A model generated the notes under the pieces. That model made no database searches, was not told where the DNA came from, and saw only the letters and a list, made by a program, of their open reading frames with translations. This document shows positions 41,057-61,393 of a stretch of DNA of 64,000 bases, in pieces. Within the stretch, counting starts at the first letter, position 1. Every line of letters starts with the position of its first letter. This DNA comes from Alphaproteobacteria bacterium (GTDB taxonomy: Bacteria; Pseudomonadota; Alphaproteobacteria; UBA2966). Location of the stretch: contig OZ219858.1 in NCBI GenBank assembly GCA_964291395.2, positions 558,378 through 622,377 on the forward strand. Reading direction: 5' to 3'. A program made the translations under genes and the position numbers.

Positions 41057-41692
41057 ATGGCCGCGAGACTCTGCCTGTCCCTTGCCTTTGCCGTGCTGGC
41101 CGCCGCCTTTTTATTGCGCGACGCCGCGGCTGCGGAGCTCTCGTCCCGGGACCGGCAGGACATCCGCCGGATCGAAGCGTATCTCAACGGCATTCGTACG
41201 CTCTCCGCGGACTTCATCCAGGTCGCTCCGGACGGTTCCATCAGTCGCGGGCGCTTCTATCTCAAACGCCCCGGCCGCCTGCGCTTCGAGTACGAGCCGC
41301 CCGCACCCGTCCTGGTCGTCGCTGACGGCACCTACGTGAACTACTTCGACGTCGAACTGGGTCAGCTCAGCCAGATCGGGGTTTATTCCACCCCGCTCGG
41401 CGCGGTCGTCGCCAGGGAAGTCACGCTGAGCGGCAGGATCGAGGTCACGTCCGTCGAGCGCGGTTCCGCGGTCATCTCGCTCGAGACCGTCGACACCGAG
41501 GAACCGGGCCGCGGAACGCTGACACTGATATTCAGCGAGCGTCCTCTCGAGATCAGGAAATGGGAGGTAAACGACGCCCGGGGACTGACGACCACGATCG
41601 CCCTGGACAACGTGTCGATCAATCCTGACCTCGATCCGGAGCTGTTCGTCTTTCGACAACCTGGTGCCGAGGACGTTTCGGGCGGCGGTTGA
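41057..41692 (+). CDS. lolA: Outer-membrane lipoprotein carrier protein LolA
   Basis: Signal peptide MAARLCLSLAFAVLAAAFLL, then IEAYLNGIRTLSADFIQV...GRFYLKRPGRLRFEY. The start is either 41057 or the track start at 41012. Confidence 0.85.
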   Translation: MAARLCLSLAFAVLAAAFLLRDAAAAELSSRDRQDIRRIEAYLNGIRTLSADFIQVAPDGSISRGRFYLKRPGRLRFEYEPPAPVLVVADGTYVNYFDVELGQLSQIGVYSTPLGAVVAREVTLSGRIEVTSVERGSAVISLETVDTEEPGRGTLTLIFSERPLEIRKWEVNDARGLTTTIALDNVSINPDLDPELFVFRQPGAEDVSGGG

Positions 41693-42007
41693 CGGCGAAG
41701 GGACAGCGCTTCGAAAAGGGGTTCCCGCGTTTCTTCACCATCCCCCCAGGGCGCAATGCATGGGTATCCAGCAGCACCGGCAACGCTACCGCCCCTCCCA
41801 CGCCTCCAGTTCCTCCTCGGGCAGACGGTCGCGCTGGAAGGGCTGCAGGAGGCGCTCCGACAGCGAAGGGCGAGCCCGGCCGGGATCGCCCGGCACGCGG
41901 AGCGCGGCGGCGTCGCCACGGTGTTCTGATTTCGGTTATCTGAGCATGGCGTAGTCGTGTTCGAGGGCGCCGACTATTGAGCCAGTCGGCGTGATTGCAG
42001 GTGAGCG

Positions 42008-42547
42008 TTATCGGCCGGGTTCATCCGGCTGGAAATGCCGGACCCTGGGGAGCAGGTCCGGGCTCGGACGGCCGTCGACGGTCGCGGCCCAGCCGATGAC
42101 GTCCGGGCGCCGGCCGAATAACGCGAAGACCTCCCCGTCCCTGTCGGGGCCGGGCTGGAGGCCGCCGTCGACGCGCCATCCGTGGGCCGCGCCGAGTTTC
42201 AGCGCCGCCGAAGGCGCGGCGATGCCGTCGGCATGCTCCCGATGCCGCCGGGCGGCTTGCCGGCATGCCGGCCAGGTGTCCGGTCCACCGGTCAGTGTTT
42301 CGCGGGGCAGGTCCGGCCGATGCGACGGGGTTTCGCCGATGTCGACCGCCCAGAGGGCGCGGCGGACGGTGGAAAGATCCTGCGGGTCGCGGATCTCCTC
42401 GTGTCGAAGAAACTCCGCCCACGCGCCGTCCGGCGTGTCGCAGAAGTAGTGGGTCAGCTCGCCCGGCGCGTTCCACCGGCCGGCGGATTGCGACGAATCC
42501 TCCCGCAGAAAGGGAAAGCGGGGATCGGCGTGCCGATAGGCGATCAC
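42008..42547 (-). CDS. RES-domain toxin (NAD+-degrading RES/MbcT family)
   Basis: GTG at 42545-42547 overlaps the antitoxin TGA (GTGA). The product VIAYRHADPRFPFL...AGRWNAPGELTHYFCDTPDGAWAEFLRHEE...APSAALKLG carries the R...E...S residues in order. Confidence 0.75.
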   Translation of the reverse strand: MIAYRHADPRFPFLREDSSQSAGRWNAPGELTHYFCDTPDGAWAEFLRHEEIRDPQDLSTVRRALWAVDIGETPSHRPDLPRETLTGGPDTWPACRQAARRHREHADGIAAPSAALKLGAAHGWRVDGGLQPGPDRDGEVFALFGRRPDVIGWAATVDGRPSPDLLPRVRHFQPDEPGR

Positions 42548-43164
42548 GTCGCCGGCGACGACGCCAATGCCCGGGCGAGATCGCGGACCCTTCGGGGGCC
42601 GTCGTCTCCCGGCGACCACTCGTGGCCGAGCGCCTGCGCGGGCGTGTCGCCGTCGAGCCGCTCGCGGGGCCGGTCGAACCAGCGCCGGACCCCGATGTCG
42701 TTGTACGCCCCGCCAAGGTCCCCGACGACGAAGGCGAGAAAGTGGAGCCGGGCGGCGATCGCGTCCGGGGTGGAGCGGTTGCCGGAAATGTAGCGCCGCG
42801 CACTGGACTGGGAGATGCCGAGGAGGCGGGTCAGCAGTTCCACTCCCAGGACGCCCTGCAGGGCGCGCCATTCGTGCGCGGGGGCCGGGGATTGGTCGAG
42901 GGCCTCGTTGATCTTCTCCAGGAGCGCGGAAAGCCGGGCGGCATCGGAGCAGGGCAACCGGTGAAGTTCCGCAAGGAAGCTGCGGCCGATACCGGCTTCG
43001 GCCATGCCCGCTTCGAGCCCCTGAATCGCGGAATCGTCCAGGCAGGTGATAGGACGCAAGAGCAGGCCCATCGCGTCGGCGCGCGTCAGCGCCCCGATCG
43101 CCGCGGAGGCGAGCCTCGGGTCGTCGAACGGACTGCGAACGGACTGGATATGGAGATTCGTCAT
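42544..43164 (-). CDS. Xre/MbcA/ParS-type antitoxin with a C-terminal DUF2384 toxin-binding domain
   Basis: ATG at 43162-43164. LGISQSSARRYISGNRSTPDAIAARL (HTH) and RRWFDRPRERLDGDTPAQAL (DUF2384-like). It lies upstream of the RES gene and overlaps it. Confidence 0.75.
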   Translation of the reverse strand: MTNLHIQSVRSPFDDPRLASAAIGALTRADAMGLLLRPITCLDDSAIQGLEAGMAEAGIGRSFLAELHRLPCSDAARLSALLEKINEALDQSPAPAHEWRALQGVLGVELLTRLLGISQSSARRYISGNRSTPDAIAARLHFLAFVVGDLGGAYNDIGVRRWFDRPRERLDGDTPAQALGHEWSPGDDGPRRVRDLARALASSPAT

Positions 43165-43592
43165 GATCCAAATGTGTGCCACGTCTGCGGCCGCGTCAAT
43201 GCTGACTGGACCGGGCCGGTGCGGATTCCCGACAGAGCGGCCCGCGTTCTGCTGACCGTCATGGATCGAAACCCTGACGCCGTGGTCGAGGCGCTCGAAT
43301 ACGAGGCTCGGTCCGCACGGGCGGACAGGCGATCCGATGTCATGACGTGGATCGCGAACGTGTTTCAGCCCGCGGATTCGAGGTTCACGTCGGAATACGA
43401 CTGCCGCTTCCGGGCGGGGAGGAGCGGAGAGCGCGCTCAGGTGATCGTAGTTGGGTGTGAGGCGCTGTTTCACTGAATTGTTCCAGATCGTGGACGCTCG
43501 GTGGGCAGGCTTCTTGGCGGGCATTGTCGGACCGAGGAAACACCGGGACGTACTAAGGATGGGGTCGGAGGCGGCGAGCGGGCTAGGTCCTT

Positions 43593-44269
43593 CTACGTCA
43601 GTCGATACACGGCGCGGAGAAGATCAGCCGCCTCATCCCGGGTGAAGGGAACTCCAAAAGCCCTGGGATCGAGAGTTTGGTCGGCGTGAGCCAGGTCGAC
43701 GAAAGCACGAAGATCCCTGCGGACGGGTTCCGGCAGTGCGACCCGAGCATCCTCAGGCAGGAGCTGCGCCAGCCGGAAGACGATGTCCGTCCTTTCGGTT
43801 TACGTTTCCATCGGACCGAGCTTCGAGAACCGCGCGGGCCTTGAACGGAATGAGCAGGGTCTCGTCGATCGTGACGCCGTTCTTTGGTTGGAGCGCCTCG
43901 AAATAGGCGTCGTCCAGCAGGATCGCCGAGAGGCTGACATGTCTGGCCGGTCGTAGATCGCGTCTTCGGGCAGGTCGAGGTCCAGCAAAGAGCTCGATCA
44001 TGAAGGGGAAACGGTGGAAGCGAGAATTCCCTGCGCCCGTCGCTCCGTTCGCGGGCCTGATATCCGCCTGCGTCCAGGAATGCGTGGAAGGCCCGTCCGA
44101 ACTCGGCGTCCACCACCTCGACGCAGAGCACCATGTCGATGTCTCTGGTCGCCCTGAAATCGAGGCCGGCTGCGTCGAACAGCAGATCGCAAGCGGTGCC
44201 GCCGATGATGGCGTACTGGCCCTCGTGGGCCGCGAAGTGTTCGCGAAACTTGTCGATTCCGGTTACCAC
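43593..44269 (-). pseudogene. AbiEii/AbiGii-family nucleotidyltransferase toxin with multiple frameshifts
   Basis: Family-like segments sit in three different frames. These are MVTGIDKFREHFAAHEGQYAIIGGTACDLLFDAAGLDFRATRDIDMVLCVEVVDAEFGRAFHAFLDAGGYQARERSDG, then SLSAILLDDAYFEALQPKNGVTIDETLLIPFKARAV, then ALPEPVRRDLRAFVDLAHADQTLDPRAFGVPFTRDEAADLLRAVYRLT followed by TAG at 43593-43595. Confidence 0.75.
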
Positions 44270-45240
44270 GGCATTCCGTCCAACAGTCGTTCCGCCGCCA
44301 TGGAAACGCGCTCATCGCGGTGATCGTGGAACTGCGCGTAGAGCGACAGCGGATCCACGGTCCGCGCGGTGGACAAGGCAGCCGGGTCATATGACCAGGT
44401 TTCCACGATATGGGAAGCCCGATCCCGGTCGGTTTCGACGAACTCGCCGGCCTGGGCGACCCTCTTCCAATCGGCGGCCGCGACCGCGAGAGCCGGCAGC
44501 GGCGGCGGGGAGAGGTCGGTCAGCTCGGCGAGCGCGCTCTCGCCGGCACGTTTCAGCGGCGGCGCGGCGTGAACGTCCCGGATGAATTTCTCGGTGCGCA
44601 CGGGGCTGTGCAGCAGGTCGTGGGCGGCATCGAACAGTTGCCTCCCTTCGGCCTCGAACCGGATGCGCCGCTCTCTGCCGTGTCGTTCGGTCTGGGCCAG
44701 CCCGGCACCGACCAGATCGTCGAACGCGCGGCCGATCGACATCGCCGAGTAGCGCAACTGAGTCGCTACGAGGGATGGGGTTGTGGCGGTCTCGTCGAGC
44801 CGCAGAAGGCGATGGAACAGTACCGCTTGAGCCGCCGGCGAGAGGCCGACTGCGCGGCGCGGCTTCGGCGTGCGGAAGCGTTCGCGCAAGTCCATCGCGA
44901 GGTCGGGAATGTAGAGCTGTTTGCCTGGCACGACGAAAGGAACCCGGTGTCCGATGAGGCGCGAGCGGTTGTGCGCGCTCAGCCACGGAGCGACGAAGAC
45001 GACGATCGCGTCATCGGCGGGGCGGACCAAGGCGACATGCTTTGCGATGTCGGACGGCGTGGCGGTGTTGTCTGTGGTCGCGAGGAAGATACATCGTCTT
45101 CCGACTATGTAGCCTTCGTGGAGGCTGTACATCCGAGAAAGAAAGGAGGGAAGGCTGGGCGCGCCGTCGAGCGTAGCGACCCTTGCAGGTTCGTGAAGCG
45201 TATCTTCGAGATAGCGTTGGAGCGCGGCGGTGATGGGCAT
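44263..45240 (-). CDS. AbiEi-like antitoxin / transcriptional regulator partner of the AbiEii gene
   Basis: Intact ~325-aa ORF directly upstream of the nucleotidyltransferase gene, overlapping it by 7 nt. It contains a wHTH-like segment, TPSLVATQLRYSAMSIGRAFDDLVGAGL. The start could be 45240, 45249 or a TTG at 45294. Confidence 0.6.
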   Translation of the reverse strand: MPITAALQRYLEDTLHEPARVATLDGAPSLPSFLSRMYSLHEGYIVGRRCIFLATTDNTATPSDIAKHVALVRPADDAIVVFVAPWLSAHNRSRLIGHRVPFVVPGKQLYIPDLAMDLRERFRTPKPRRAVGLSPAAQAVLFHRLLRLDETATTPSLVATQLRYSAMSIGRAFDDLVGAGLAQTERHGRERRIRFEAEGRQLFDAAHDLLHSPVRTEKFIRDVHAAPPLKRAGESALAELTDLSPPPLPALAVAAADWKRVAQAGEFVETDRDRASHIVETWSYDPAALSTARTVDPLSLYAQFHDHRDERVSMAAERLLDGMPW

Positions 45241-45280
45241 TGCCAGCATCTCGCGGTATCTTGCTAACGTCACGACGAAT

Positions 45281-45301
45281 ACTAACACTATCAATGTTAG
45301 T
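45281..45301. promoter_or_regulatory. Perfect inverted repeat ACTAACA-N7-TGTTAGT upstream of the AbiEi-like gene; candidate autoregulatory operator
   Basis: Read directly in an AT-richer patch 41-61 nt upstream of the preferred start codon. AbiEi antitoxins are known to autoregulate through promoter inverted repeats. Confidence 0.45.
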
Positions 45302-45579
45302 GTGCAAGAATATCGTTATGGATGTATCCGCTCAGGGCGCGATGCCATGCCGGAACTGATGAAGCACGACAACATCCGGCACGACTGGGTGATCCGAAAG
45401 CGACGCTTCGTTTCCTTCTTCGATCCAAGAGACTACGGCACGACCGCCATCGTGGATCATGACCAAATCGAGGCGATCGAACTGGACGGCAACGAACGGC
45501 GCGTCTAAATAATGTGTCGTCGACCGTCGGCGCTCGGACGGCTCGAGATCCGGCGTAGTGGTTTGAGGCATAACGGCAA

Positions 45580-46344
45580 ATGGCGAGAAAGAACCGGCCC
45601 GCGGTCGTGGGTGTTCCCGCGAGTATCCGGCGAATAAACGAGAACGAATTTCACGCGGTGGCGACCCGCTACCTCGAGGCGGTTGCCCGCCACACGGGAG
45701 CGGAGCCCGTCATCATTCCCGCCATCGGCGGCCATCTCGACTTCGAAGACCTGATGCGGCGGGTCGATGGTTTTTTCTTCACCGGCTGTCCGTCCAATGT
45801 CGAGCCTCATCATTACGACGAACCCGTCAACCTGACACCCGACAGGCGTGATCCCGACCGCGACGCCACGACGCTGCCGTTGATCCGGTTTGCGCTCGCC
45901 AATGCGGTTCCCATGTTCGCCATCTGCCGGGGCTTCCAGGAGCTGAACGTCGCCCTCGGCGGCAGTCTCCACCAGTTGCTGCACGAGGTTCCCGGAAAAT
46001 GGGATCACCGGGGCGGCGGTGACAAACCCCACGAGGAACGGTTCGCTCCCAGGCATCACGTTTCCCTGACTCCAAGGGGTCAACTCGCCGACCTGACGGA
46101 GTCGGCGCGGATCGTGGTGAACTCGCTTCATGGTCAAGGCGTCGATCGCCTGGGACGCGACCTGCACGTCGAGGCCATTGCCGATGACGGCACCGTCGAA
46201 GGGTTTCGGGTGGACGGTGCGGGAGCGTTCGCGCTGGGCGTCCAGTGGCACCCGGAGTGGCGCACGGAAGAGACACCTCACTATGGCGCTCTGTTCGGCG
46301 CGTTCGGCGCCGCCGTCAAGGAACGGGCCCTCACCCGTCGATGA
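45580..46344 (+). CDS. puuD: Class I glutamine amidotransferase-like / peptidase C26 (gamma-glutamyl-GABA hydrolase PuuD family)
   Basis: GFFFTGCPSNVEPHHY...FAICRGFQELNVALGGSLHQ...WHPEW is the typical PuuD-family pattern (Cys nucleophile in ICRGFQ). Confidence 0.8.
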   Translation: MARKNRPAVVGVPASIRRINENEFHAVATRYLEAVARHTGAEPVIIPAIGGHLDFEDLMRRVDGFFFTGCPSNVEPHHYDEPVNLTPDRRDPDRDATTLPLIRFALANAVPMFAICRGFQELNVALGGSLHQLLHEVPGKWDHRGGGDKPHEERFAPRHHVSLTPRGQLADLTESARIVVNSLHGQGVDRLGRDLHVEAIADDGTVEGFRVDGAGAFALGVQWHPEWRTEETPHYGALFGAFGAAVKERALTRR

Positions 46345-46940
46345 GGTTCGCCACCGAAGACCCGGACGACCCTGAGTCGTTGGATCTTGAAGACTTTCCC
46401 ACGCTTCAGGCGGTGGCGCGTTTCGCGCAAGCGGTGCCGCACGTTCCGTGGTTCCTGCACCTCGGCGAGCCGTTGACGGAGGAGGTCCGCCGGATCGCCG
46501 AGTCCTATGTTCACGCGCTGGGATTTCCCGATTGTGCGATCGCCGTGATCGGCGACTGGGAGGAGGCCGGAGACGCGGCGGAGAATCCCGGATTCGACGA
46601 CGCCTCCTGGGAGGTCGAGGAGCAGCTTACCGCGGGACTCATGGATGACGCCCTCGCCGTTGTCGAAGAGCAGGAGCTGGCGACCGCGTTGACGCACGCT
46701 TCGGCCGCCGGGGGTGACGCCGCGAAGCTGGCGATAGAGGAAGCGGCCGCACTCGCCGGCCACTCCGACCCCGCGTTTCTCGACGCGGCCGTGGGCGCCG
46801 CGACGAAAGCCTGTTATCAGGCGGCCCTGTTACTGGCGGGCGGCGGAGACGAGGATCATGCCGTGGTCTTCAAGTACAAGCTGTTCGAAAGCGGCCGCTG
46901 GCCCGTCGGCATCGTCGGAAGCACCTTCAACATATTCTGA
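46341..46940 (+). CDS. Acidic hypothetical protein, translationally coupled to the puuD-like gene
   Basis: ATG at 46341 overlaps the puuD stop (ATGA). The product is 199 aa, D/E-rich, belongs to no family I recognise, and shows coding-like codon usage. Confidence 0.55.
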   Translation: MRFATEDPDDPESLDLEDFPTLQAVARFAQAVPHVPWFLHLGEPLTEEVRRIAESYVHALGFPDCAIAVIGDWEEAGDAAENPGFDDASWEVEEQLTAGLMDDALAVVEEQELATALTHASAAGGDAAKLAIEEAAALAGHSDPAFLDAAVGAATKACYQAALLLAGGGDEDHAVVFKYKLFESGRWPVGIVGSTFNIF

Positions 46941-47037: not shown

Positions 47038-47484
47038 TCAGGAGTTGAGCGCCCGGGTCAGCTGGCCGGTCGTCTTCTCGAGACGGGTCGCGAGCTCGCG
47101 CATGATTTCGACGGCCATCTGCGGAAATTCTCCCATCATGCGGAAGAACAGTTCCTTGGAAATCTTCAGGACTTCGACGTCCTGGTCCGCGATCACCGTG
47201 GCCGTTCGCGGGACGTCACAGAGAATGGCGATCTCACCCACGATATCGTTCTCGTGCACTTCGGCGACCTTCACGTCACCGTTGGGTGTCGAGACCACGA
47301 TCCCGACCGAACCTTTGATGATGATGTAGGCGGAATCGCCTATCTCGCCCTGGCGGCAGAGCTCGGTGCCCTCCCGGAACTTCAGGCGCTCGCTCGTGAA
47401 AGCCAGGAGCTTGAGTTTCGACGGCTCGATATTCGAGAACAGCGGGATCCGCCGTAGAAGATCGACTTCCTCGTTCAAGCTCAT
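47038..47484 (-). CDS. Stand-alone cyclic-nucleotide-binding domain protein
   Basis: ATG at 47482-47484 (RBS GGGACGGA). LRRIPLFSNIEPSKLKLLAF...GEIGDSAYIIIKGSV...GEIAILCDVPRTATVIA has an intact phosphate-binding cassette with the Glu and Arg. Confidence 0.85.
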   Translation of the reverse strand: MSLNEEVDLLRRIPLFSNIEPSKLKLLAFTSERLKFREGTELCRQGEIGDSAYIIIKGSVGIVVSTPNGDVKVAEVHENDIVGEIAILCDVPRTATVIADQDVEVLKISKELFFRMMGEFPQMAVEIMRELATRLEKTTGQLTRALNS

Positions 47485-47504
47485 TGTTTCCGTCCCACCG
47501 GCTG

Positions 47505-50159
47505 TCAAGCGCCGTCGATCAACCGCCTGAAATATGACCCGTCCCGGTTGAGCTCTTCGAAAGTGCCTTGTTCCACGATCTTTCCCGATCGCATGACGAG
47601 CACATGGTCGAACTCTCTCGCGAGATCCGCCTTGTGCAGTACCCAGACCAGCCCGCGACCGGCGAACTCCTCGAGCAGATTGCTCATTATCAGCCCCTGG
47701 CTCGCGGTGTCCAGCGCGGCCGTCGCCTCGGCGAGAAACAGTATGTCGGGCCGCTTTAGAACGCCGCGCGCGATCGCAAGCTTCTGACGCTGTCCCGACG
47801 ACAGTCGCGAACCGGACACGCCGACGTCATACCTCAATCCGACTTCGACGACCGTGTCCCTGAGGCCGAGCTCCGAGACGACTTCCGTGATCAGCGCGCT
47901 GACGCGGTCCGCGGCTTCAGGCCGTCCGTAGACGACTCTCCCGAAAATGATGTTGTCCTGAATGTTCGCCGTGCTCGCGTAGGTGTCGAGATCGAGGAAT
48001 TCCACGGAGTCGCTCGCGTCCTCGGGAAGATCCCTGGCGAACACTTCGCGGGCATCCAGCAGCTTGGCTTGAATATCGTCATCGATCATGCCCAGGCGGT
48101 GCCGCGCGGGAACCAGTTTGAAGGGCAGCGACATGATACGGGAGCGCTCCTCGGCCGACAGATCCGCCAACCTCTCGCGGTCGACGCGCGTGAGCCAATG
48201 CTGGAGCTCGCCCAGCTCTTCCGCCGACACGAAGCTGTACTGCTGGAACAATTCGTGATCGGGCGGCACGTCGGCAAAAATCTCGACCATGGTGGCGGCC
48301 GTGTCATATCCGATCTGAAGAATGCTCTCTGTCAGACCGACCTTCTCCAGGACCTCCAGGACATATGGATTTTCGCCGAGCCGTTCCATGTCGAAGGCTT
48401 CGCCGACGACATTGCCGAATAGAAGGTTTTCTCCGACGGTCGCATTGGCGTTGTAGGCGGACCGATCGAACACCTCGATCAGGTCCGCCATGCCTTCGTC
48501 ATCGGCCAGGCGCTCGCGGAACGCCGAGCGGGCTCGAAGAATCGCCTCGGCCATGTCGCCGCGTGCCTCGGGATCGACCGTTCCCCTGAGTCCCCATCGG
48601 TACACCTCGTCGTCGAGACCTACCATTTCCAGGGCGCGAAGTCCCTGTGCCTGAAGGGCCTCGGGAGTGGCCGCGCCGGCGGACTCCATGTCCACCCAAT
48701 CGGCCTTGATGTCGAGGGTGGTATTGCCGGAAGCCTTCGCTTCATTCTCGTGCCAGCTGCGCTGGCTCTTGGCATCGTCGCCGTATTCGAACTCCCGCAT
48801 GGGGCGATGCTTCAAGCCGTAGAACAGATTGAAGCCCAGGGAGCCGGCGAAGACGTATCCCTGCTGACCCACGTAGGCGAGCCGGCGTCCCGTGATCGCC
48901 TCCGGCAGACCCGCCAATTCGAGTCCGCCGACCGAGACGCCTCCTCGTGTCGGATACAGAAGTCGACTCAGCAGCTGTACCAATTCGGTCGCGCCGCTTC
49001 CCGATTCGCCGACGATGGCAACCCGCGACGGCATCGGCATCTCCAGCGAGACACCGTCGACGACGTTGTCCCCGACCTCGTCGGTCAGCGTCAGGTTGGC
49101 CGCCGTCAGGTCGCCGGTCAGCGGGTCGATGGACTCCGGTTCCTCCGTCTGCAGGCTTTCGTCGGGCATGCCGACCGGCTCGAACTGGCTGATGACCTGA
49201 TCGTATTTGATCTTCGCGTCCTCCCGCCGCTGGTAGAACGCGAGAAGTTCCTTCCAGGGGGCACCCAAATCCTTGTGCGCCGCGATTGCGGCGACCAGCG
49301 TCCCCATTTCCAGCGACCCGGAAATGACGAGGTAGCCGCCCAGCGAATAGAAGAAGAACGGACCCAGTTGTTGGATGAAGTTGTTGATGAACTTGATGAC
49401 GAACTTCTGGCGGTAGATGCGGTACCGCACGTGGAAGATGCTCCCCAGCCGATCGGAAAAATCGGCCAGCACGAACTGCGACGTGTCGTGAACGTGGACT
49501 TCGGGAACCCCTTGGACCGCCTCGCCGATGCGGTCCGACAGGCGACGCACCAGACGCACCCTTTCCTTGCCCAAGGCGTTCACGCGCATCTGCAAGCGCG
49601 GAATCAGGTATAGCTGAATGGGATAGAGCGCGACGGCCGCCGCCGCCATGATCCAGTTCTGGTAGAACAGAAACGCCAGAATGACGATGAGCGTGCCGCC
49701 CTGGAACGCCGGCAGCGCGTAGGCCTCGCCGATGAATCCGCCCAGAGGCTCCACCTCCGCGGTGACCATCGGGATGATCTCACCCTGGGACATGTTCTTG
49801 AAGGTCGGCTGCGGGAAACGAAGCACCCGGCTGAACAGTTGATAACGTAGCCGGCGCAGCATCCGCTCGCCGGTCAGACCCTGATAGACGTTGATGTAGT
49901 ACTTGAAGGCCTGGTTGATCAGGACGAGGACCAGAAAGGCCGTGCACAGGAGGAGCAGGTACCCGGTCTGATCGAAGCCGACTCCGAACAGGTCGACGGG
50001 GAAACCTTCCGGATCCCCCTGGATGGCACCGTTGATGATGCGCTTTGGAAGCTCGTAAAAGGCATACAGGAAGGGAAACGACAAGGCCGCGAGCGCGGTG
50101 AGCCAGATCTGCTGCGGCAGACTGTAGCGAATCAGGTATTTGTAGACGGTTTTCTCCAT
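47505..50159 (-). CDS. Atypical ABC half-transporter (TMD plus degenerate, insertion-bearing NBD)
   Basis: 884 aa with an N-terminal ABC exporter-type TMD. The P-loop is GESGSGAT, the Q-loop GQQ, the signature LSSGQRQK, Walker B ILFLAEATAALD and the H-loop VLHK. The Q-loop and signature are 354 aa apart. Confidence 0.85.
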   Translation of the reverse strand: MEKTVYKYLIRYSLPQQIWLTALAALSFPFLYAFYELPKRIINGAIQGDPEGFPVDLFGVGFDQTGYLLLLCTAFLVLVLINQAFKYYINVYQGLTGERMLRRLRYQLFSRVLRFPQPTFKNMSQGEIIPMVTAEVEPLGGFIGEAYALPAFQGGTLIVILAFLFYQNWIMAAAAVALYPIQLYLIPRLQMRVNALGKERVRLVRRLSDRIGEAVQGVPEVHVHDTSQFVLADFSDRLGSIFHVRYRIYRQKFVIKFINNFIQQLGPFFFYSLGGYLVISGSLEMGTLVAAIAAHKDLGAPWKELLAFYQRREDAKIKYDQVISQFEPVGMPDESLQTEEPESIDPLTGDLTAANLTLTDEVGDNVVDGVSLEMPMPSRVAIVGESGSGATELVQLLSRLLYPTRGGVSVGGLELAGLPEAITGRRLAYVGQQGYVFAGSLGFNLFYGLKHRPMREFEYGDDAKSQRSWHENEAKASGNTTLDIKADWVDMESAGAATPEALQAQGLRALEMVGLDDEVYRWGLRGTVDPEARGDMAEAILRARSAFRERLADDEGMADLIEVFDRSAYNANATVGENLLFGNVVGEAFDMERLGENPYVLEVLEKVGLTESILQIGYDTAATMVEIFADVPPDHELFQQYSFVSAEELGELQHWLTRVDRERLADLSAEERSRIMSLPFKLVPARHRLGMIDDDIQAKLLDAREVFARDLPEDASDSVEFLDLDTYASTANIQDNIIFGRVVYGRPEAADRVSALITEVVSELGLRDTVVEVGLRYDVGVSGSRLSSGQRQKLAIARGVLKRPDILFLAEATAALDTASQGLIMSNLLEEFAGRGLVWVLHKADLAREFDHVLVMRSGKIVEQGTFEELNRDGSYFRRLIDGA

Positions 50160-50188
50160 GCGACCCGCGCGTCACCAAGCAGCGAACC

Positions 50189-50606
50189 AGGGGCTATTCA
50201 CACTAACGCGCTGCATCGTGGATGAGTGCGAAGGTCACGGCCGTCCGGGCATCCGCGGCAACCATATGAAGCTTGGTGGTCCAGCCGCCACGGGACCGGC
50301 CTCGAGCTTGATGCGCACGATCCGCTCCCGCTGCAACTGCTCGAAGACCCGGTCGAGCACCCCGCTCTTCGACCAGCGGTTCATGCGCATGTAGATGGTG
50401 TGCCAGTTGCCGAAGCGGGCCGGCAGCCCCCGCCACCTGCAGCCGTGTTCGGCGACGTACAGGATGGCGTTGAGCACCTGCAGGTTCGACAGCCTGACGT
50501 TGCCGCGCTGCACCGGAAGGCACGGGGCGATGCGCGCGAACTGAGCTTCCGTGATCTCCATCCGCCGACGATAACACGATTCGCGTCATTAGTGTGAACA
50601 GCCTCT
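50189..50606 (-). mobile_element. Internally deleted IS5-family (IS427-like) element retaining both terminal inverted repeats
   Basis: The 18-bp ends are AGGGGCTATTCACACTAA (50189-50206) and, on the opposite strand at 50589-50606, AGAGGCTGTTCACACTAA (16 of 18 match). Inside is the OrfA-like MEITEAQFARIAPCLPVQRGNVRLSNLQVLNAILYVAEHGCRWRGLPARFGNWHTIYMRMNRWSKSGVLDRVFEQLQRERIVRIKLEA. This is followed out of frame by RGGWTTKLHMVAADARTAVTFAL, and the rest of the DDE domain is missing. Confidence 0.8.
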
Positions 50607-50610
50607 TGTT

Positions 50611-50645
50611 CGGCTAGTCTCGGCTAGTCTCGGCTTGTCTCGGTT
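50611..50645. repeat. Tandem decamer CGGCTAGTCT x2, then CGGCTTGTCT and a partial CGGTT
   Basis: Read directly, starting 5 nt after the right IS end. Confidence 0.85.
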
Positions 50646-50766
50646 GCGGCCCGCGCATGCGCCCGCCGACGGTGCCGGAAAACGCGGAACCGAGGCAACG
50701 GGAAAATCGTGGGATCGGCGCAATCTATGCTTTCTCGCCGGCAATCCGTATGCAAGAGTCACCGCC

Positions 50767-52029
50767 ATGTCGCGGGAAACTCACTGTCCCGTGATGGCTT
50801 CTCGAGCCGGTCGTGGCGCCCGGGTGTTGATCTACAGCCACGATACTTTCGGGTTGGGCCATCTACGCCGCTGTCGGACGATCGCCCACTCGCTGGTCGA
50901 GAGTCACGAAGATCTGTCCGTCCTGATACTTTCCGGCTCCCCCATCATTGGCAGCTTCGATTTTCGGCGTCGCGTGGACTTCGTCCGCGTGCCCGGCGTC
51001 ATCAAGCTGCGCAACGGGGAATACACGTCGCTCAATCTTCAGCTGCAACTGGAGGAAACGCTCTCGATGCGGTCCTCCATCATCGAGCACACCGCCGACA
51101 TTTTCGACCCCGACGTGTTCATCGTCGACAAGGAACCGCTGGGCCTGCGCGGAGAGATACGGGGCACCTTGGAAATGCTGCGCGCCCGAGGGAAGCGCCT
51201 CGTGCTCGGATTGCGGGACGTCCTCGACGACCCGGCCACGCTGTTCATCGAGTGGGAACGCAAAAACGCCCTTCCCGCGCTTCAGGAGTTCTACGACGAG
51301 GTTTGGGTCTACGGCTTGCCGCAGATATGCGAGCCCCTGGGGGGTCTGCCGCTGACCGGGGACATGCAACGCAAAATCACCTATACGGGCTACCTGCCGA
51401 TTACCGTCCCCAAGACCGCATTTCCCGCTGCGGTCCCGGAGATCACCAGCCGACCGTTCCTGCTGGTCACGACGGGCGGCGGCGGGGATGGAGACGTGCT
51501 GATCGAATGGGTGTTGCGCGCCTACGAGTCGGAAAAAATGCTGCCCTATCCGGCGTTGCTCGTTCTGGGACCGTTCCTTCAGCCCGAAAAACAGTCCCAA
51601 TTCATGGCGCGTGCCGCCAAGCTCGATCGTGTCGAGGCGATCGTCTTCAATCCGCGCATCGAGCGGCTCGAGGAGAACGCGATGGGGATCGTCGCCATGG
51701 GGGGGTACAACACCTTCTGCGAGATCCTGTCGCTCGACAAGCGGGCGGTCATCGTGCCGCGGACGATTCCGCGTCAGGAACAACTGATCCGAACGTCCCG
51801 GGCGCAAGAACTCGGCCTCGTGCGCATGCTCGAGGACGACGGTCATATGGATCCGGCGGCGATGGCCGGGGCACTGCGGGATCTGCCGCGCCAACCGAAG
51901 CCCTCGGAAACGATCGTCCCCGGTTTGCTGGAAGGTCTCATCAACGTGAACCGGTTGATCAAGCCCTGGCTCGATCAACGGCCGACACTTGAAGTCGCAG
52001 ATACCGTTACGGCGTTTCGCCCCGCCTAA
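50767..52029 (+). CDS. GT-B glycosyltransferase of the MurG/GT28-C-terminal (MJ1255-like) type
   Basis: RVLIYSHDTFGLGHLRRCRTIAHSL...VTTGGGGDG...VAMGGYNTFCEILSLDKRAVIVPR. The start could be 50767 or 50794. Confidence 0.7.
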   Translation: MSRETHCPVMASRAGRGARVLIYSHDTFGLGHLRRCRTIAHSLVESHEDLSVLILSGSPIIGSFDFRRRVDFVRVPGVIKLRNGEYTSLNLQLQLEETLSMRSSIIEHTADIFDPDVFIVDKEPLGLRGEIRGTLEMLRARGKRLVLGLRDVLDDPATLFIEWERKNALPALQEFYDEVWVYGLPQICEPLGGLPLTGDMQRKITYTGYLPITVPKTAFPAAVPEITSRPFLLVTTGGGGDGDVLIEWVLRAYESEKMLPYPALLVLGPFLQPEKQSQFMARAAKLDRVEAIVFNPRIERLEENAMGIVAMGGYNTFCEILSLDKRAVIVPRTIPRQEQLIRTSRAQELGLVRMLEDDGHMDPAAMAGALRDLPRQPKPSETIVPGLLEGLINVNRLIKPWLDQRPTLEVADTVTAFRPA

Positions 52030-52055
52030 GCCGAACCTGTTAGATTTGGCGGAGC

Positions 52056-53324
52056 ATGAAGACGGTCGCCTTCATCCTGAAGGGCTATCCACGCCTCTCC
52101 GAGACGTTCATCGCCCAGGAAATCCTCTCCCTGGAACGTCTGGGACTGGCCATCGAAATCGTCAGCCTTCGCCGCCCCACCGACGTTTCGACGCACCCGG
52201 TCCATCGCGAAATCGGCGCTCCGGTGACCTACCTCCCGGAGTATCTGCATCAGGAGCCGTTGCGGGTTCTGCGCGCCCTCACGGCGGTCGGACGCCGCCG
52301 CCGGTTCTGGACCGCATTTTCGATCTGGTGGAAAGATTTCATTCGCGACCCGACCCCGAACCGGATCCGCCGGTTCGGCCAAGCCGCCGTCTTGGCACAC
52401 GGAATACCGCCTCGGGTGAGCCAATTGCACGCACACTTCCTTCACACCCCGGCCTCGGTCGCCCGCTATGCCTCGGCGCTGACGGGACTGGCCTGGAGTC
52501 TCTCGGCTCACGCCAAGGATATTTGGACGACGCCGGCATGGGAGAAACGAGAAAAGCTCGCCGAATGCGATTGGGCCGTCACCTGCACCGAAACGGGATT
52601 CCATCACCTTGAGGGCTTCGCACCGCGGGACCGCCTGCATCTCGTCTATCACGGCCTGGACCTTGACCGGTTTCCGGCCCCTCCGGCCCCCGCCTCGGGT
52701 CGGGACGCTTCCGACGCGGACCGCCCGGTCATCCTGCTCTCCGTCGGCCGAGCAGTCGAAAAGAAAGGCCTTGACACGCTCGTCGAGGCACTCGCGCGGT
52801 TGCCGACGCATATCGCGTGGCGGCTTGTCCATATCGGAGGCGGGCCCCGGCTGGATCACCTGAGGGAAATGGCGACACGGTCGGGGCTGGCCGACCGAAT
52901 TCAGTGGCTCGGTCCTCAACCGCAAGAGGTCGTTCTGGAGAATTACAGATTGGCGGATCTGTTCATCCTGCCCAGCGTCATCGCCAAGGACGGCGACCGC
53001 GACGGCCTTCCCAACGTCCTACTCGAGGCACAAAGCCAGGGCCTTCCCTGCATCGCCGGCAAGCTGCCGGGGATTGCCGAGCTGATCTCCGATGGAACGA
53101 CCGGTGTCCTGGTCGAACCCGGCGACACCGCGGCGCTTGCCGGCGCGATCTCGAGCCTGGCGCAGGATCCCCAGCGTCGTCGGCAGTTGGGCTCCGCCGC
53201 ACTGAGTTGCGTCCACAAACGGTTTGCCCTGACCGAGCACATCGGGCGGCTCGCGTCTTTGTTTGGGCTGCCGCCCGTGAACGAGGACGCCGCCCCTTGC
53301 GAATCGCGTTTTACGCGCCGCTGA
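52056..53324 (+). CDS. GT4-family glycosyltransferase (WcaL-like layout)
   Basis: MKTVAFILKGYPRLSETFI...LLSVGRAVEKKGLDTL...DGDRDGLPNVLLEAQSQGLPCIAG...ELISDGTTGVLVEPGD contains the E-x7-E region. Confidence 0.8.
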   Translation: MKTVAFILKGYPRLSETFIAQEILSLERLGLAIEIVSLRRPTDVSTHPVHREIGAPVTYLPEYLHQEPLRVLRALTAVGRRRRFWTAFSIWWKDFIRDPTPNRIRRFGQAAVLAHGIPPRVSQLHAHFLHTPASVARYASALTGLAWSLSAHAKDIWTTPAWEKREKLAECDWAVTCTETGFHHLEGFAPRDRLHLVYHGLDLDRFPAPPAPASGRDASDADRPVILLSVGRAVEKKGLDTLVEALARLPTHIAWRLVHIGGGPRLDHLREMATRSGLADRIQWLGPQPQEVVLENYRLADLFILPSVIAKDGDRDGLPNVLLEAQSQGLPCIAGKLPGIAELISDGTTGVLVEPGDTAALAGAISSLAQDPQRRRQLGSAALSCVHKRFALTEHIGRLASLFGLPPVNEDAAPCESRFTRR

Positions 53325-54490
53325 AAGCGCCGACCCACCGGGCGCCGTCGGGTGATCGCCGCATGGCCCGACAGCTCATTTCGGCGCTGCGGTTCGCAGG
53401 GCACGCCGTCGACGTCGCGTCGACGTTCAGAAGTTTCGATGGGGATGGGAATCCCGAACGGCAAGATGCCATTCGGGATGCCGCCGAGGCCGAGGCCGAC
53501 CGGATCGTTCACGACTATCGAGCCGGCGCCGAGAGCCAAAGGCCGGAGGTCTGGTTCACCTATCACCTGTACTACAAGGCTCCTGATTGGATCGGACCCA
53601 GGGTGTCGCGGGCCCTCGGTCTGGGATACGTCATAGCCGAGGCGAGCCATGCGCCCAAGCGCGCGAGTGGACCATGGGCGTTGGGTCATGAGGCGGTGAC
53701 AAACGCCCTCGGCGCGGCGGATTCCGTACTGGCCCTCACGGAGCGGGACATTCCCTGCGTTCGATCCCTGCTGCATGCACGGGCTCGGCTGCTTCATCTG
53801 CCGCCGTTCCTCGATCCCGCGGCGGAAGTCGACGGCGTGACCGGCGATGAGGATCGGGACTCCTGTCGAGACGCTCTCGCCAAACGATACGCTCTCGACG
53901 GCACCAAGAGCTGGCTCCTGGCCGTGGCGATGATGCGCTCGGGCGACAAGCTCCGATCCTACCGCCACCTATCGCGCGCATTGGCAGCATTGCCGGGAGA
54001 CGACTGGCAACTCGTCATCGTGGGCGACGGCGGCGCGCGGGCGGACGTGGAAGCCGAATTCTCCCCACTCGGCTCGACCGGTCGAGGCGGGCGCGTCGCG
54101 TGTTTGGGCGAACTCGCGGCGCCCGGATTGCAACGCGTCTATGCGGCATGTGATATCCTGGTCTGGCCCGCCATCAACGAAGCCTACGGAATGACGCCGC
54201 TCGAAGCGCAGGCAGCGGGACTGGCGGTGGTTGCCGGTGATGCCGGTGGTGTCCGCGAGGTTGTTCGTGATGGCGAAACCGGCGTCCTCGTTGATCCGGA
54301 CGATTGCGACGCCTTCTCCGAGGCCGTGCGCAACCTCCTTGACGATCCCGTCCGGCGGCGGGAACTCGGACGCCGGGGACGGAGATTCGTCCGGGAGGAG
54401 CGGTCCCTGGCCGCGGCCAGCGGCACCATCGATAGGGCCGTCGTTCACGCCGCCGAGGCGCGCCACGACGCAGCACGGCGGGCTTCATGA
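53297..54490 (+). CDS. GT4-family glycosyltransferase
   Basis: Proposed TTG start at 53297 (LRIAFYAPLKAPTHRAPSGDRRMARQL). The C-terminal half carries NEAYGMTPLEAQAAGLAVVAGDAGGVREVVRDGETGVLVDPDD. The start is uncertain. Confidence 0.7.
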   Translation: MRIAFYAPLKAPTHRAPSGDRRMARQLISALRFAGHAVDVASTFRSFDGDGNPERQDAIRDAAEAEADRIVHDYRAGAESQRPEVWFTYHLYYKAPDWIGPRVSRALGLGYVIAEASHAPKRASGPWALGHEAVTNALGAADSVLALTERDIPCVRSLLHARARLLHLPPFLDPAAEVDGVTGDEDRDSCRDALAKRYALDGTKSWLLAVAMMRSGDKLRSYRHLSRALAALPGDDWQLVIVGDGGARADVEAEFSPLGSTGRGGRVACLGELAAPGLQRVYAACDILVWPAINEAYGMTPLEAQAAGLAVVAGDAGGVREVVRDGETGVLVDPDDCDAFSEAVRNLLDDPVRRRELGRRGRRFVREERSLAAASGTIDRAVVHAAEARHDAARRAS

Positions 54491-55113
54491 CCGCGCTCGC
54501 GCTGATACGCCACGGATCCACCGTCTTCACGGAGACCCGGCGGATTCAGGGCCTGCGCGATGTGCCCTTGTCCGGAACGGGGTGCGCGAGGGTCCAGAGC
54601 TACGACGTCCCGTCCGAGTTGACAGGCTTTGCCTGGATTTCGAGTCCTCTTTCGCGCGCGCGGGAAACCGCACGGATCCTGTGCGGGAAGCCGGTTCCAA
54701 CCGATTCCCGCCTGATCGAAATGGACTGGGGGGCTTGGGAAGGCCGCACCCTGAAGGATCTCCGTGCCGATCTTGGGAAGGCCATGCGGGAGAATGAGGA
54801 CAAGGGGTTGGACTTTTGTCCGGACGGGGGCGAGAGCCCCCGCCAGGTCCTGCGCCGGGTTCAGCCGCTGCTGGCCGAGATCGGCGCTGCACGCCGGGAT
54901 ACGGTGGCGGTTACCCACCGAGGCGTCATTCGGGCAATCTTCGCGGCGGCCCTCGATTGGGACATGGTGGGCCCGCCGCCGCACAAGCTCGACTGGACCT
55001 GCATCCATGTGTTCGATGTAGACGATCGCGGCGTCCCCCGGATATCGGGCCTCAACATCCCCATGGCACCGGCCGAAAAGCCGGTGCCGACGGATAACTG
55101 GCGAACACGGTGA
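54487..55113 (+). CDS. Histidine phosphatase family protein (phosphoglycerate mutase-like)
   Basis: LALIRHGST (RHG motif)...SSPLSRARETA...AVTHRGVIRA. Its start overlaps the upstream stop (ATGA). Confidence 0.8.
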   Translation: MTALALIRHGSTVFTETRRIQGLRDVPLSGTGCARVQSYDVPSELTGFAWISSPLSRARETARILCGKPVPTDSRLIEMDWGAWEGRTLKDLRADLGKAMRENEDKGLDFCPDGGESPRQVLRRVQPLLAEIGAARRDTVAVTHRGVIRAIFAAALDWDMVGPPPHKLDWTCIHVFDVDDRGVPRISGLNIPMAPAEKPVPTDNWRTR

Positions 55114-56267
55114 ACAGGCCGCGCATCCTTTTCTACGTACAGCACCTCGTGGGCATCGGTCACTTCAAGCGCGCTGCTGCCATTTCGCGAGCCGCTGCGG
55201 CGAGAGGCATGGGCGTAACCCTGGTGTCGGGCGGTCAAGCGCCTGCCGAGATCGATCTCGGAGCCGCAAAGCTCATGCAACTGCCGGCGGTCCATGCAAC
55301 GGAAGACGATTACGCCACGCTCCTCGTGGAAGACGGGTCACAGGCGGACGATGTCCTGCGCCGCCGCCGAGCCGGTCTCGTGCTGGAGGAATTCGAGCGA
55401 TGCCAACCGGACGTACTCGTCGTCGAGTTGTTTCCCTTCGGGCGCCGTCAAATGAAGTTCGAGTTGCTCCCCTTGCTGCGGGCCGCCCGGGATGCGCGAC
55501 CTCGCCCCGTCATAGTCTCATCGATACGCGACATCCTGGTCGGACAATCGAGGGCTGGCCGTGCGGATGAAGTGTGCGGCCATCTCGACACGTACTTCGA
55601 TCACGTACTCGTTCACGCCGACCCTTCCCTTGTCACCTTGGGAGCGACGTTTCCCCAAGAGAACCGAATCAAGAAGATGGTGACGTATACGGGATATGTC
55701 GCCGACCGGATCGCCGAAGAGAGCGGTGAAGACGGTACGAACGAGGTTGTCGTTTCGGCCGGGGGCGGTGCGGTGGGCCGGCGTCTGTTGGAAGTGGCGT
55801 CGGCGTGCAGACCGCTTACGGCGTTGCGCGATCATATCTGGCGCCTGCTCGTGGGCTCACGCGGCTCGGCAGGATCGCTCGCCTCTCGACTGGGGCGGAA
55901 GGATTCCGGCGTGATCGTGGAAGCCGCCCGGTCCGATTTCCCAGCACTGCTTTCGCGGGCCGCCGTGTCCGTCAGCCAAGGCGGATACAACACCAGTGTC
56001 GAGATTCTTCGGGCGAAGACGCCTGCCGTCGTCGTGCCGTTCGCAACCGGCGTCGAGACGGAACAAACGATCAGAGCGGAACTGCTGCGCAAGCGAAGGC
56101 TGATCGAGGTCGTGCCCGAGGGGGAGCTCTCGCCGGAGAGCTTGGCGAAAGCCGTCGATTCCGCCTACCGCGCGGGATCCGGAGACGCGGACATCGATCT
56201 GTCGGGCGCGAATACGACGGCGGATCTTCTGGAGGCATGGGCGCGGCAGGCAGCGCGGAATGCATGA
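55110..56267 (+). CDS. GT-B glycosyltransferase of the MurG/GT28-C-terminal (MJ1255-like) type, second copy
   Basis: GTG start overlaps the upstream stop. RILFYVQHLVGIGHFKRAAAISRA...VSAGGGAVG...VSQGGYNTSVEILRAKTPAVVVPF is collinear with the product of 50767..52029. Confidence 0.7.
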   Translation: MNRPRILFYVQHLVGIGHFKRAAAISRAAAARGMGVTLVSGGQAPAEIDLGAAKLMQLPAVHATEDDYATLLVEDGSQADDVLRRRRAGLVLEEFERCQPDVLVVELFPFGRRQMKFELLPLLRAARDARPRPVIVSSIRDILVGQSRAGRADEVCGHLDTYFDHVLVHADPSLVTLGATFPQENRIKKMVTYTGYVADRIAEESGEDGTNEVVVSAGGGAVGRRLLEVASACRPLTALRDHIWRLLVGSRGSAGSLASRLGRKDSGVIVEAARSDFPALLSRAAVSVSQGGYNTSVEILRAKTPAVVVPFATGVETEQTIRAELLRKRRLIEVVPEGELSPESLAKAVDSAYRAGSGDADIDLSGANTTADLLEAWARQAARNA

Positions 56268-56282
56268 GCACGGTATGAACCG

Positions 56283-61340: not shown

Positions 61341-61393
61341 CTGCGGTCGATGCCGGCCGATGATTGGTTGAGGTGGTTCGGGCGGGATTGACG

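Follow-up and report, generated by a model that had tools for sequence, protein, structure and literature searches.

The window analyzed here is a 64,000-nucleotide stretch of an alphaproteobacterial genome (contig OZ219858.1, positions 558,378 to 622,377 of the forward strand), in which two genes on the reverse strand encode an 884-residue protein resembling an ATP-binding cassette (ABC) exporter and, directly downstream, a 148-residue cyclic nucleotide monophosphate (cNMP)-binding protein. The larger protein belongs to a widespread, conserved and unnamed ABC-exporter-like family. Judged by sequence, the residues that bind and hydrolyze Mg-ATP have degenerated throughout the family. Duplication has enlarged the helical subdomain of the nucleotide-binding domain (NBD) to ~380 residues that are conserved and ordered, and a cNMP-binding domain akin to those of PKA and PKG is the obligate partner of the protein, encoded by a separate gene here and fused to the C-terminus elsewhere. 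The two genes probably, though by no means certainly, encode subunits of one cyclic-nucleotide-responsive membrane module that is built on a type IV ABC-exporter scaffold, would take its cargo from the neighbouring operon and would operate non-hydrolytically.

Architecture of the gene pair

The features of the two genes are as follows (window coordinates, strand, description).

47505–50159, minus: ABC-exporter-like gene, 884 residues (open reading frame, ORF); membrane domain followed by a degenerate NBD with an expanded helical region
49170–50159, minus: transmembrane domain, residues 1–330, six long helices (PF00664; DSSP assignment of the AlphaFold2 (AF2) model)
48987–49010, minus: degenerate Walker A, GESGSGAT, residues 384–391 (codons read)
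48495–48881, minus: helical-subdomain unit 1, residues 427–555; Q-loop strand, NLFYG helix, 55-residue extra segment, VGL helix and ILRARSAF helix
48015–48494, minus: helical-subdomain unit 2, residues 556–715; extra copy and ~95 residues of unique conserved helices
47748–48014, minus: helical-subdomain unit 3, residues 716–804; canonical copy running into LSSGQ
47790–47804, minus: signature LSSGQ, residues 786–790, at the end of the canonical helical-subdomain copy
47508–47747, minus: NBD C-terminal core, residues 805–884, with Walker B, D-loop and H-loop inside
47727–47744, minus: Walker B ILFLAE, residues 806–811 (codons read)
47634–47636, minus: codon of the H-loop His842 (codons read)
47038–47484, minus: stand-alone cNMP-binding protein, 148 residues (PF00027 the only Pfam match)
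47194–47238, minus: phosphate-binding cassette of the 148-residue protein, GEIAILCDVPRTATV

The 884-codon reading frame of the ABC gene is unbroken. Translation of the reverse complement reproduced the ORF coordinates, the two Ala codons in the Walker motifs and the Q-loop, signature, D-loop and H-loop reported in a preliminary description of this DNA, which had been made from the sequence alone. Ala390 (GCG, 48990–48992) occupies the Walker A slot of the canonical Lys and Ala810 (GCC, 47730–47732) the Walker B slot of the canonical Asp, so that the canonical catalytic motif set, from A-loop to H-loop, is incomplete in the window protein. The Q-loop is GQQ (residues 431–433) and the D-loop is AALD with Asp817. 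The spacing between the Q-loop and the signature, measured from Gln432 to Leu786, is 354 residues, the same distance as first described.

Pfam assigns the ABC_membrane family (PF00664) to residues 66–292 with an E-value of 1e-22, in keeping with the six-helix membrane domain, and matches the ABC_tran family (PF00005) to the NBD in two separate pieces. External ABC models (the NCBIfam exporters and ABCB1 and ABCB4 in the Protein Data Bank (PDB)) cover only residues ~60–460 and 730–884. The ABCB and MsbA profiles align to residues 343–460 and 756–881, as expected for the architecture of an ABC-exporter NBD, and the RecA-like core strands are intact in the AF2 model. A Foldseek search with this model returned the type IV exporters TmrAB, Sav1866 and MsbA with a probability of 1.00 and also matched PCAT1; TM287/288 and TmrAB are the top structural matches. 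The best NCBIfam matches are MsbA (E-value of 2e-63) and HepA, with CydD and SmdB among the others. No curated NCBIfam subfamily cut-off is reached by the 884-residue protein; the scores are 214.7 versus 602 bits for the MsbA equivalog (TIGR02203) and 179 versus 725 bits for the HepA equivalog (NF045513). No C39 peptidase domain was found in the protein by Pfam. Structurally, the protein is a type IV ABC exporter that lacks the complete set of catalytic motifs.

The 120 best protein matches are all full-length (876–926 residues, 58–98% identity) and carry generic names only. A scan that included one genome per species yielded at least 592 confirmed relatives among 600 genome stretches, and a profile of the insertion alone, searched against 1.84 billion representative proteins, retrieved 1212 clusters (defined at 50% identity) at E ≤ 1e-3 and 435 at E ≤ 1e-30. 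Nearly all named hosts among the matches listed are Alphaproteobacteria of the Rhodospirillales type, and the hosts among these matches include Azospirillum, Sneathiella, Nisaea, Thalassobaculum, Zavarzinia, Minwuia, Stellaceae and Geminicoccaceae. Megaplasmids of Rhizobium and Sinorhizobium, S. meliloti pSymB among them, carry relatives as well. Neither a curated family nor a paper describing the ABC/cNMP-binding family was found in Pfam, NCBIfam, the database names or the literature, which agrees with the initial view that the combination is not a recognized, characterized system. Likewise, no locus tag or phenotype was found for the S. meliloti ortholog (NC_003078 is unannotated in the plasmid collection, the database names are generic and the literature search was empty), and the transcriptome paper on R. 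centenum is silent on a gene of this kind, hence no link emerged to the cyst formation that is controlled by cyclic GMP (cGMP) in the Azospirillum clade.

Degeneracy of the nucleotide-binding motifs

The motif census was performed with 120 close matches, 80 species loci and 74 distant full-length representatives, and the combined figures refer to 275 sequences. The complete canonical motif set occurs in 0/275 family members, none of which reaches six of the seven features. Three of the catalytic residues are distributed as follows.

Walker A Lys present: 73/120 close matches, 51/80 species loci, 31/74 distant representatives
Walker B Asp present: 1/120 close matches, 5/80 species loci, 21/74 distant representatives
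H-loop His present: 89/120 close matches, 42/80 species loci, 5/74 distant representatives

The Walker B Asp is replaced mostly by Ser, Asn, Ala or Phe. Arg stands in the Walker A Lys slot in 26/120 close matches and 21/80 species loci, and Glu or Asp stands in the Walker A Ser/Thr slot in 185/275 sequences, the family-majority P-loop being GxxGSG[K/R][E/D] and the members of Oceanibacterium and S. meliloti having GSGKE. The Q-loop Gln is kept in just 89/275, and the A-loop Tyr of ABCB1 and ABCB4 falls in an insert state of the family profile and has no counterpart. The signature of most members is degenerate as well (LSxAQ), whereas the clade of the window protein keeps LSSGQ. Every relative with at least 70% identity (P0001–P0019, L001 and L002) has the Lys-less P-loop GSG[A/T]x, and this clade is devoid of both the Lys and the acidic residue (GSG[A/T][T/A/G/S]). 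Independent losses of the Walker A Lys are scattered over many branches outside the clade. The idea that the two losses are conserved is thus correct in part. Loss of the Walker A Lys holds within the clade of at least 70% identity, but most other relatives keep Lys or Arg with Glu or Asp next to it; loss of the Walker B Asp extends almost family-wide, but the replacement is usually Ser or Asn and not Ala. In the family alignments, the motif residues drift freely against a fixed insertion and a fixed membrane domain, the latter with many invariant residues, including those of GERMLRRLR, EVEPLGG and PWKELL.

Comparison with the closest orthologous loci, L001 and L002, yielded a ratio of nonsynonymous to synonymous substitution rates (dN/dS) of 0.15–0.16 for the ABC gene overall. 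The ratio is 0.12–0.21 in each of its regions (membrane domain, N-terminal ATPase core, insertion and C-terminal core) and lowest, 0.12, in the membrane domain. The low values in all regions indicate that the degenerate ATPase domain is maintained by selection. They bear on the least probable of the explanations considered, that of a decaying gene or a strain-specific, functionless pseudo-ATPase. Ala at two catalytic positions and an insertion sequence (IS) remnant directly upstream would fit such decay; however, the frame is intact, dN/dS is low and the same classes of substitution recur throughout the 1212 clusters. Strain-specific decay was rejected based on the motif census and dN/dS, and the degeneracy is a property of the lineage, which supports the interpretation in the preliminary description.

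Alternatively, the protein may be the degenerate half of a heterodimeric exporter whose catalytically competent partner is specified by a gene at another locus. Heterodimers in which one site is degenerate are frequent among type IV exporters, TM287/288 and TmrAB lead the structural matches, and the canonical LSSGQ of the window's clade could complete the consensus site of a partner. Nonetheless, one ABC-exporter ORF was found per locus in 80/80 loci searched over 6 kb on each side, with no second such gene in any of them, whereas known heterodimeric ABC exporter pairs are normally adjacent genes. Moreover, the signature of most members is also degenerate, so that neither composite site could be canonical in these proteins. 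A heterodimer is therefore considered quite unlikely.

Duplication of the helical subdomain

Approximately 290 residues between the Q-loop and LSSGQ have no external match, and the expanded helical region comprises ~380 residues overall. The MsbA and ABCB models extend through residues 450–460, i.e., into unit 1, the CydD, SmdB and ECF-ATPase models pick up from residues 731–741 in unit 3, and ABCB4 and ABCB1 in the PDB align to residues 756–881. Profile–profile comparison using the program hhalign revealed that residues 558–625 are homologous to residues 716–785 (probability of 96.6–97.1%, E-values of 6e-11 to 6e-10 over 57–68 columns). As the external ABC models align residues 716–785 to the region that follows the Q-loop, residues 558–625 represent a true extra copy of the Q-loop strand, the NxxFG helix and the VGL helix. 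Unit 1 is interrupted by ~55 extra residues; its match is marginal overall (E-values of 3e-4 to 4e-3, probability of 8–44%), and its alignment with unit 2 is weak (E-values of 3e-4 to 8e-4, probability of 24–44%). The triplicated helical subdomain of the preliminary description is therefore firm for two copies, 2 and 3, and plausible for copy 1.

A strand–helix–strand–helix–helix pattern repeats within the insertion according to the DSSP assignment of the AF2 model, and a helix with the motif AR..F/L closes each unit (residues 541–552, 702–712 and 797–803). The resemblance of these unit-end helices to the signature helix is suggestive. The ~95 residues that are unique to unit 2 are rich in invariant positions, including those of DVPPDHELFQQ and LPFKL.PARHRLG, and the insertion has dozens of invariant residues, among them N479, W488, R525, R544, N570, N572, E577, N578, H635 and R686-H687-R688. 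The AF2 fold of the insertion is nearly all helical with two short strand pairs, and its predicted local distance difference test (pLDDT) score is ~90 in the full-length run and 89.3 when modeled as an isolated segment. Together with the strong conservation, these scores show an ordered rather than a disordered insertion. Neither the insertion nor its single repeats have a Pfam match even at E ≤ 10, and the insertion has no sequence relative in the PDB. A Foldseek search with the insertion alone returned nothing below an E-value of 1, probably because each helical subdomain is too small for detection.

The cNMP-binding partner and linked cyclases

The cNMP-binding gene starts with an ATG at 47484, 20 nucleotides past the stop codon of the ABC gene, and this start is conserved in orthologs. 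The 148-residue protein matches PF00027 with an E-value of 3e-22 and 78.7 bits (cut-off of 27.5). Its cassette GEIAILCDVPRTATV (Gly-Glu ... Arg-Thr/Ser-Ala) is intact and essentially invariant in 75 orthologs, and the length, the single domain, the intact cassette and the 20-nucleotide gap are all as first described. The nearest solved structures in the PDB are the cNMP-binding domains of PKG and PKA, not CRP. No helix-turn-helix DNA-binding domain was found in the 148-residue protein, where PF00027 is the only match and positions 15–137 of the 214 positions of the CRP model are covered. Databases label the protein 'Crp/Fnr family transcriptional regulator' or 'cyclic AMP-dependent transcriptional regulator', as they do its counterpart at L081 (10405–10869). 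With no DNA-binding domain in the protein, the Crp/Fnr label is a misnomer, and in practical terms the partner is widely mis-annotated as a transcription factor. The sequence features suggest that the protein binds cyclic AMP (cAMP) or cGMP. The Thr next to the cassette Arg (PRTATV) is PKG-like and would point to cGMP as the preferred ligand. The ligand cannot be assumed, however, given that the cNMP-binding-fold domain of HetC binds ppGpp (PMC10986499).

A cNMP-binding ortholog lies directly 3' of the ABC gene and on the same strand in 75 of the 78 loci with enough downstream sequence, and in two further loci it lies within ~540 nucleotides. Searching with a hidden Markov model built from the stand-alone partners identified the domain as a fusion to the ABC C-terminus in 23/74 distant representatives (E-values of 1e-21 to 1e-53), and PF00027 is present in 9/9 fusions checked by Pfam. 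P0229 and P0128 are natural examples of the fusion. The pairing proposed from the window locus is thus supported by synteny, by fusion and by cyclase genes that adjoin several relatives. Two fused members, P0206 (L085, 8001–11471) and P0208, continue beyond the cNMP-binding domain into an additional GGDEF-like domain at the C-terminus, which hints at cross-talk between cNMP and cyclic di-GMP (c-di-GMP) in some lineages.

The window itself includes part of a cyclase gene.

63660–64000, minus: class III adenylate/guanylate cyclase, 3' part, 113-residue fragment (PF00211, E-value of 2e-5)

This fragment runs into the end of the window ~13.5 kb from the ABC pair, faces the end of the importer operon described below, and matches cyclases that adjoin family members elsewhere (tblastn). 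At L084, a class III cyclase gene overlaps the 3' end of a fused ABC-cNMP gene, and at L085 class III cyclases are located on both sides of the fused gene with an Apyc1-like metallo-β-lactamase (MBL) gene adjacent. A cyclase directly follows the cNMP-binding gene at L025, L038 and L074, and is found nearby at L078, L064 and L062. The cyclase-beside-importer arrangement of the window is repeated at L085.

Divergent operon and genomic context

An operon at 50635–63594 on the plus strand is transcribed divergently from the ABC/cNMP pair and contains the following genes.

50635–52029, plus: GT28-like glycosyltransferase (Pfam, NCBIfam)
52056–53324, plus: GT4 glycosyltransferase (Pfam, NCBIfam)
~53300–54490, plus: GT4 glycosyltransferase (Pfam, NCBIfam)
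54487–55113, plus: histidine phosphatase (Pfam, NCBIfam)
55110–56267, plus: GT28_C glycosyltransferase (Pfam, NCBIfam)
56283–57050, plus: 255-residue protein, operon member
57065–57553, plus: 162-residue protein (~165 residues across genomes), operon member
57550–59445, plus: fused double ATPase, DppD/F-type (Pfam)
59442–61340, plus: SBP_bac_5 binding protein (Pfam)
61364–62419 and 62416–63594, plus: two importer permeases (Pfam)

Each of the five glycosyltransferase and phosphatase genes is present in 56–69 of the 80 loci, and the gene of the 255-residue protein was seen in 21/80 only, at the edge of the 6-kb flanks. The gene order of the window operon is repeated in Oceanibacterium hippocampi and two other complete contigs (L087–L089), and in S. 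meliloti three glycosyltransferase orthologs and importer components are found beside the ABC-cNMP pair. A Dpp/Opp-type importer adjoins family members at L081 and L085–L089, including the distant members L085 and L086, and thus occurs even beside distant members without the glycosyltransferases. The gene 3' of the cNMP-binding gene encodes a methyltransferase of the Methyltransf_17 family in 48/80 loci (L088 is one of the 48), of the FkbM family in S. meliloti (also present at L081), and of the Methyltransf_11/23 families at L086; no methyltransferase was found after the cNMP-binding gene in the window. Three unrelated methyltransferase families at one position look like non-homologous replacement and suggest that the product is methylated. 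The operon of glycosyltransferases and importer genes, the neighbouring methyltransferase and the cyclase had escaped the preliminary description.

The neighbours also bear on the possibility that the protein is not a transporter but acts in signalling, as a scaffold or receptor anchored in the membrane through which cNMP levels would be coupled to the glycosyltransferases, to the importer or to a c-di-GMP output. The two fused representatives with a GGDEF-like domain, the cyclase, response-regulator and Apyc1-like MBL genes found as neighbours, and the dispensability of the catalytic motifs across the family are consistent with such a role. The membrane domain, however, with its many invariant residues and dN/dS of 0.12, is the most constrained part of the protein, which fits a translocation pathway, and the persistent linkage to enzymes that build and methylate sugars resembles exporter operons such as that of S. 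meliloti msbA2. A scaffold role is therefore regarded as unlikely.

The window locus adjoins ftsK and lolA, as does L088, which indicates a core chromosomal position. This setting, in turn, disfavours a Pycsar-like antiphage effector, in which an infection-triggered cyclase would activate a membrane cNMP-binding effector that kills the cell. At the domain level, the cNMP-binding protein and the neighbouring cyclases match the PycTIR and PycC models in PADLOC, and an Apyc1-like MBL gene adjoins one family member. Yet these PADLOC matches are generic, and a dedicated cyclase and effector in a variable defence-island context were not found. The position by ftsK and lolA is stable, the gene order is conserved in at least 80 species and at least 592 stretches, the ABC gene is under purifying selection and it is linked to a biosynthetic operon, leaving a defence role very improbable.

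The region between the ABC gene and the divergent operon contains a mobile-element remnant.

50183–50612, strand not assigned: remnant of an IS5-type element resembling a miniature inverted-repeat transposable element, with 38-nucleotide inverted repeats (76% complementary) and a truncated DUF4096 ORF (PF13340)

The remnant is situated in the divergent promoter region, 23 nucleotides upstream of the ABC start codon, and is absent at the orthologous locus L001, where the corresponding interval is 77 nucleotides long versus 499 in the window. Its insertion in this strain may have pushed the native promoter away from the ABC-cNMP operon. On the other side of the pair, a 231-residue acidic ORF (46245–46940, plus) runs toward the cNMP-binding gene; neither Pfam nor NCBIfam matches it, and it is present in 5/80 related loci only. 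Further away, a 3.8-kb stretch (41692–45493) is missing from the otherwise collinear L001. It contains a 343-residue ORF (44263–45294, minus) with a weak MarR-like/CARF-like match and an apparently frameshifted ORF (43598–44269) with a nucleotidyltransferase-like N-terminus, and may be a small mobile or toxin-antitoxin-like islet.

Proposed mode of action

Loss of the hydrolysis residues, addition of subdomain copies and constancy of the cNMP sensor together suggest control by cAMP or cGMP rather than ATP-driven pumping. In the proposed mechanism, cAMP or cGMP from the linked class III cyclases would bind the 148-residue protein, which would dock on the ATPase domain or on the expanded helical region. 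Docking would control the closure of the two pseudo-ATPase domains in a homodimer, and this closure would gate the membrane domains, as the C-terminal regulatory domains of MetN, ModC and MalK do. The cargo would most likely be the glycoconjugate, probably methylated, of the divergent glycosyltransferase/phosphatase operon, and its translocation would proceed without canonical ATP hydrolysis as the power source. The nucleotide-gated or channel-like role put forward in the preliminary description is a reasonable one to envisage. A bolder version, possible but on the whole doubtful, is a cyclic-nucleotide-gated ABC-fold translocator with a pseudo-enzyme NBD, in which the multiplied helical subdomain would serve as the docking platform and cNMP, not ATP hydrolysis, would switch the membrane domains. 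If true, bacteria would have in this family an equivalent of CFTR and SUR, the regulatory ABC proteins, that had arisen along another path.

Several observations weigh against a non-hydrolytic module that serves the divergent operon. In the close family, 111/120 members retain the Walker B Glu, 117/120 the signature Gln and 120/120 the D-loop Asp, and with these residues nucleotide binding, even slow hydrolysis, could persist. Furthermore, an acidic residue at Walker A position 391 is paired with a non-Asp Walker B in 179/185 sequences, a count that does not amount to a statistic because the sequences are related by descent, and members that retain Ser/Thr at this position keep the Walker B Asp more often (12/33). 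The acidic residue could be a relocated Mg2+ ligand that sustains residual ATPase activity. The glycosyltransferase operon is absent beside the distant members L083–L086, so that the cargo assignment may hold for some lineages only. Lastly, the IS remnant now stands between the ABC gene and its ancestral upstream region, which makes its expression in this strain uncertain.

The acidic position 391 is also central to the view that the protein is an ATP-driven exporter with a rewired site, in which an acidic P-loop residue has taken over the Mg2+ from the Walker B Asp and the role of the cNMP-binding protein is limited to tuning the rate. The co-occurrence at the two positions, the catalytic Glu, D-loop and signature Gln retained in the close family, and the intact RecA-like core strands of the model all speak for it. 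On the other hand, the clade of the window protein has neither the Lys nor the acidic P-loop residue, Arg replaces the Lys in 26/120 close matches and 21/80 species loci, and the Q-loop Gln is scarce (89/275). In addition, the H-loop His is mostly gone in the distant members (5/74), there is no A-loop aromatic residue, and the motifs drift freely while the insertion and membrane domain are fixed. A rewired exporter is accordingly held to be an improbable account of the family. The heterodimer, scaffold, Pycsar-like and decay readings are likewise ranked below the cyclic-nucleotide-responsive module.

ABC exporters are understood as machines driven by ATP hydrolysis, in which a degenerate site is normally accompanied by a second, consensus site. 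The present family would therefore be a natural test of the ABC exporter scaffold without a canonical ATPase. A cyclic-nucleotide-responsive module would also provide a direct post-translational route from cAMP/cGMP signalling to the production of envelope glycoconjugates in Alphaproteobacteria, among them Azospirillum and Sinorhizobium meliloti, a model symbiont.

Comparison with known systems

With the homodimeric type IV exporters of the MsbA/HepA type, the window protein shares the half-transporter organization of a membrane domain followed by an ATPase domain. It differs from them in its sub-cut-off scores, degenerate motifs, ~290 extra residues and obligate cNMP-binding partner. Large insertions ahead of the signature motif of the ABC fold also occur in Rad50/SMC and UvrA, soluble and active ATPases in which they form coiled coils or DNA-binding domains, whereas the insertion of the window protein is duplicated helical-subdomain material in a membrane protein. 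In MetN (C2 domain), ModC and MalK, a ligand-binding domain on the C-terminus of the ATPase controls dimerization; these are importers with active ATPases and other regulatory folds, and no homology is implied.

The nearest published combination of an ABC exporter and a cNMP-binding-fold domain is HetC of Nostoc PCC 7120, in which this domain is required for function and binds ppGpp in vitro (PMC10986499). HetC carries it at the N-terminus, next to a C39 peptidase, and depends on the catalytic residue of its ATPase (PMC10986499). In the window family, the cNMP-binding domain is instead C-terminal or separate, there is no peptidase and the ATPase is degenerate, hence the HetC-like arrangement of an N-terminal cNMP-binding domain and a C39 peptidase is not found. 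S. meliloti MsbA2 (SMb21191) is an exporter encoded with glycosyltransferases for an unknown polysaccharide, and its loss is harmful only with the glycosyltransferases intact (PMC3687685, PMC12239276). It is a functional analogue for the window family, though a different gene: identity of the S. meliloti ortholog with msbA2 was rejected because the msbA2 operon is located at ~938 kb on pSymB and the ortholog at 841.7–845.0 kb, with NC_003078 coordinates of 841,723–844,996. Degenerate nucleotide sites serve regulation or gating, and not each step of transport, in CFTR, SUR1, TM287/288 and TmrAB (PMC7756269). All of these are heterodimers or full-length proteins in which one consensus site persists. 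Compared with CFTR and SUR1, the window family consists of a single half-transporter with degenerate Walker A, Walker B, Q-loop, H-loop and, mostly, signature, and a homodimer of such a protein would have no consensus site.

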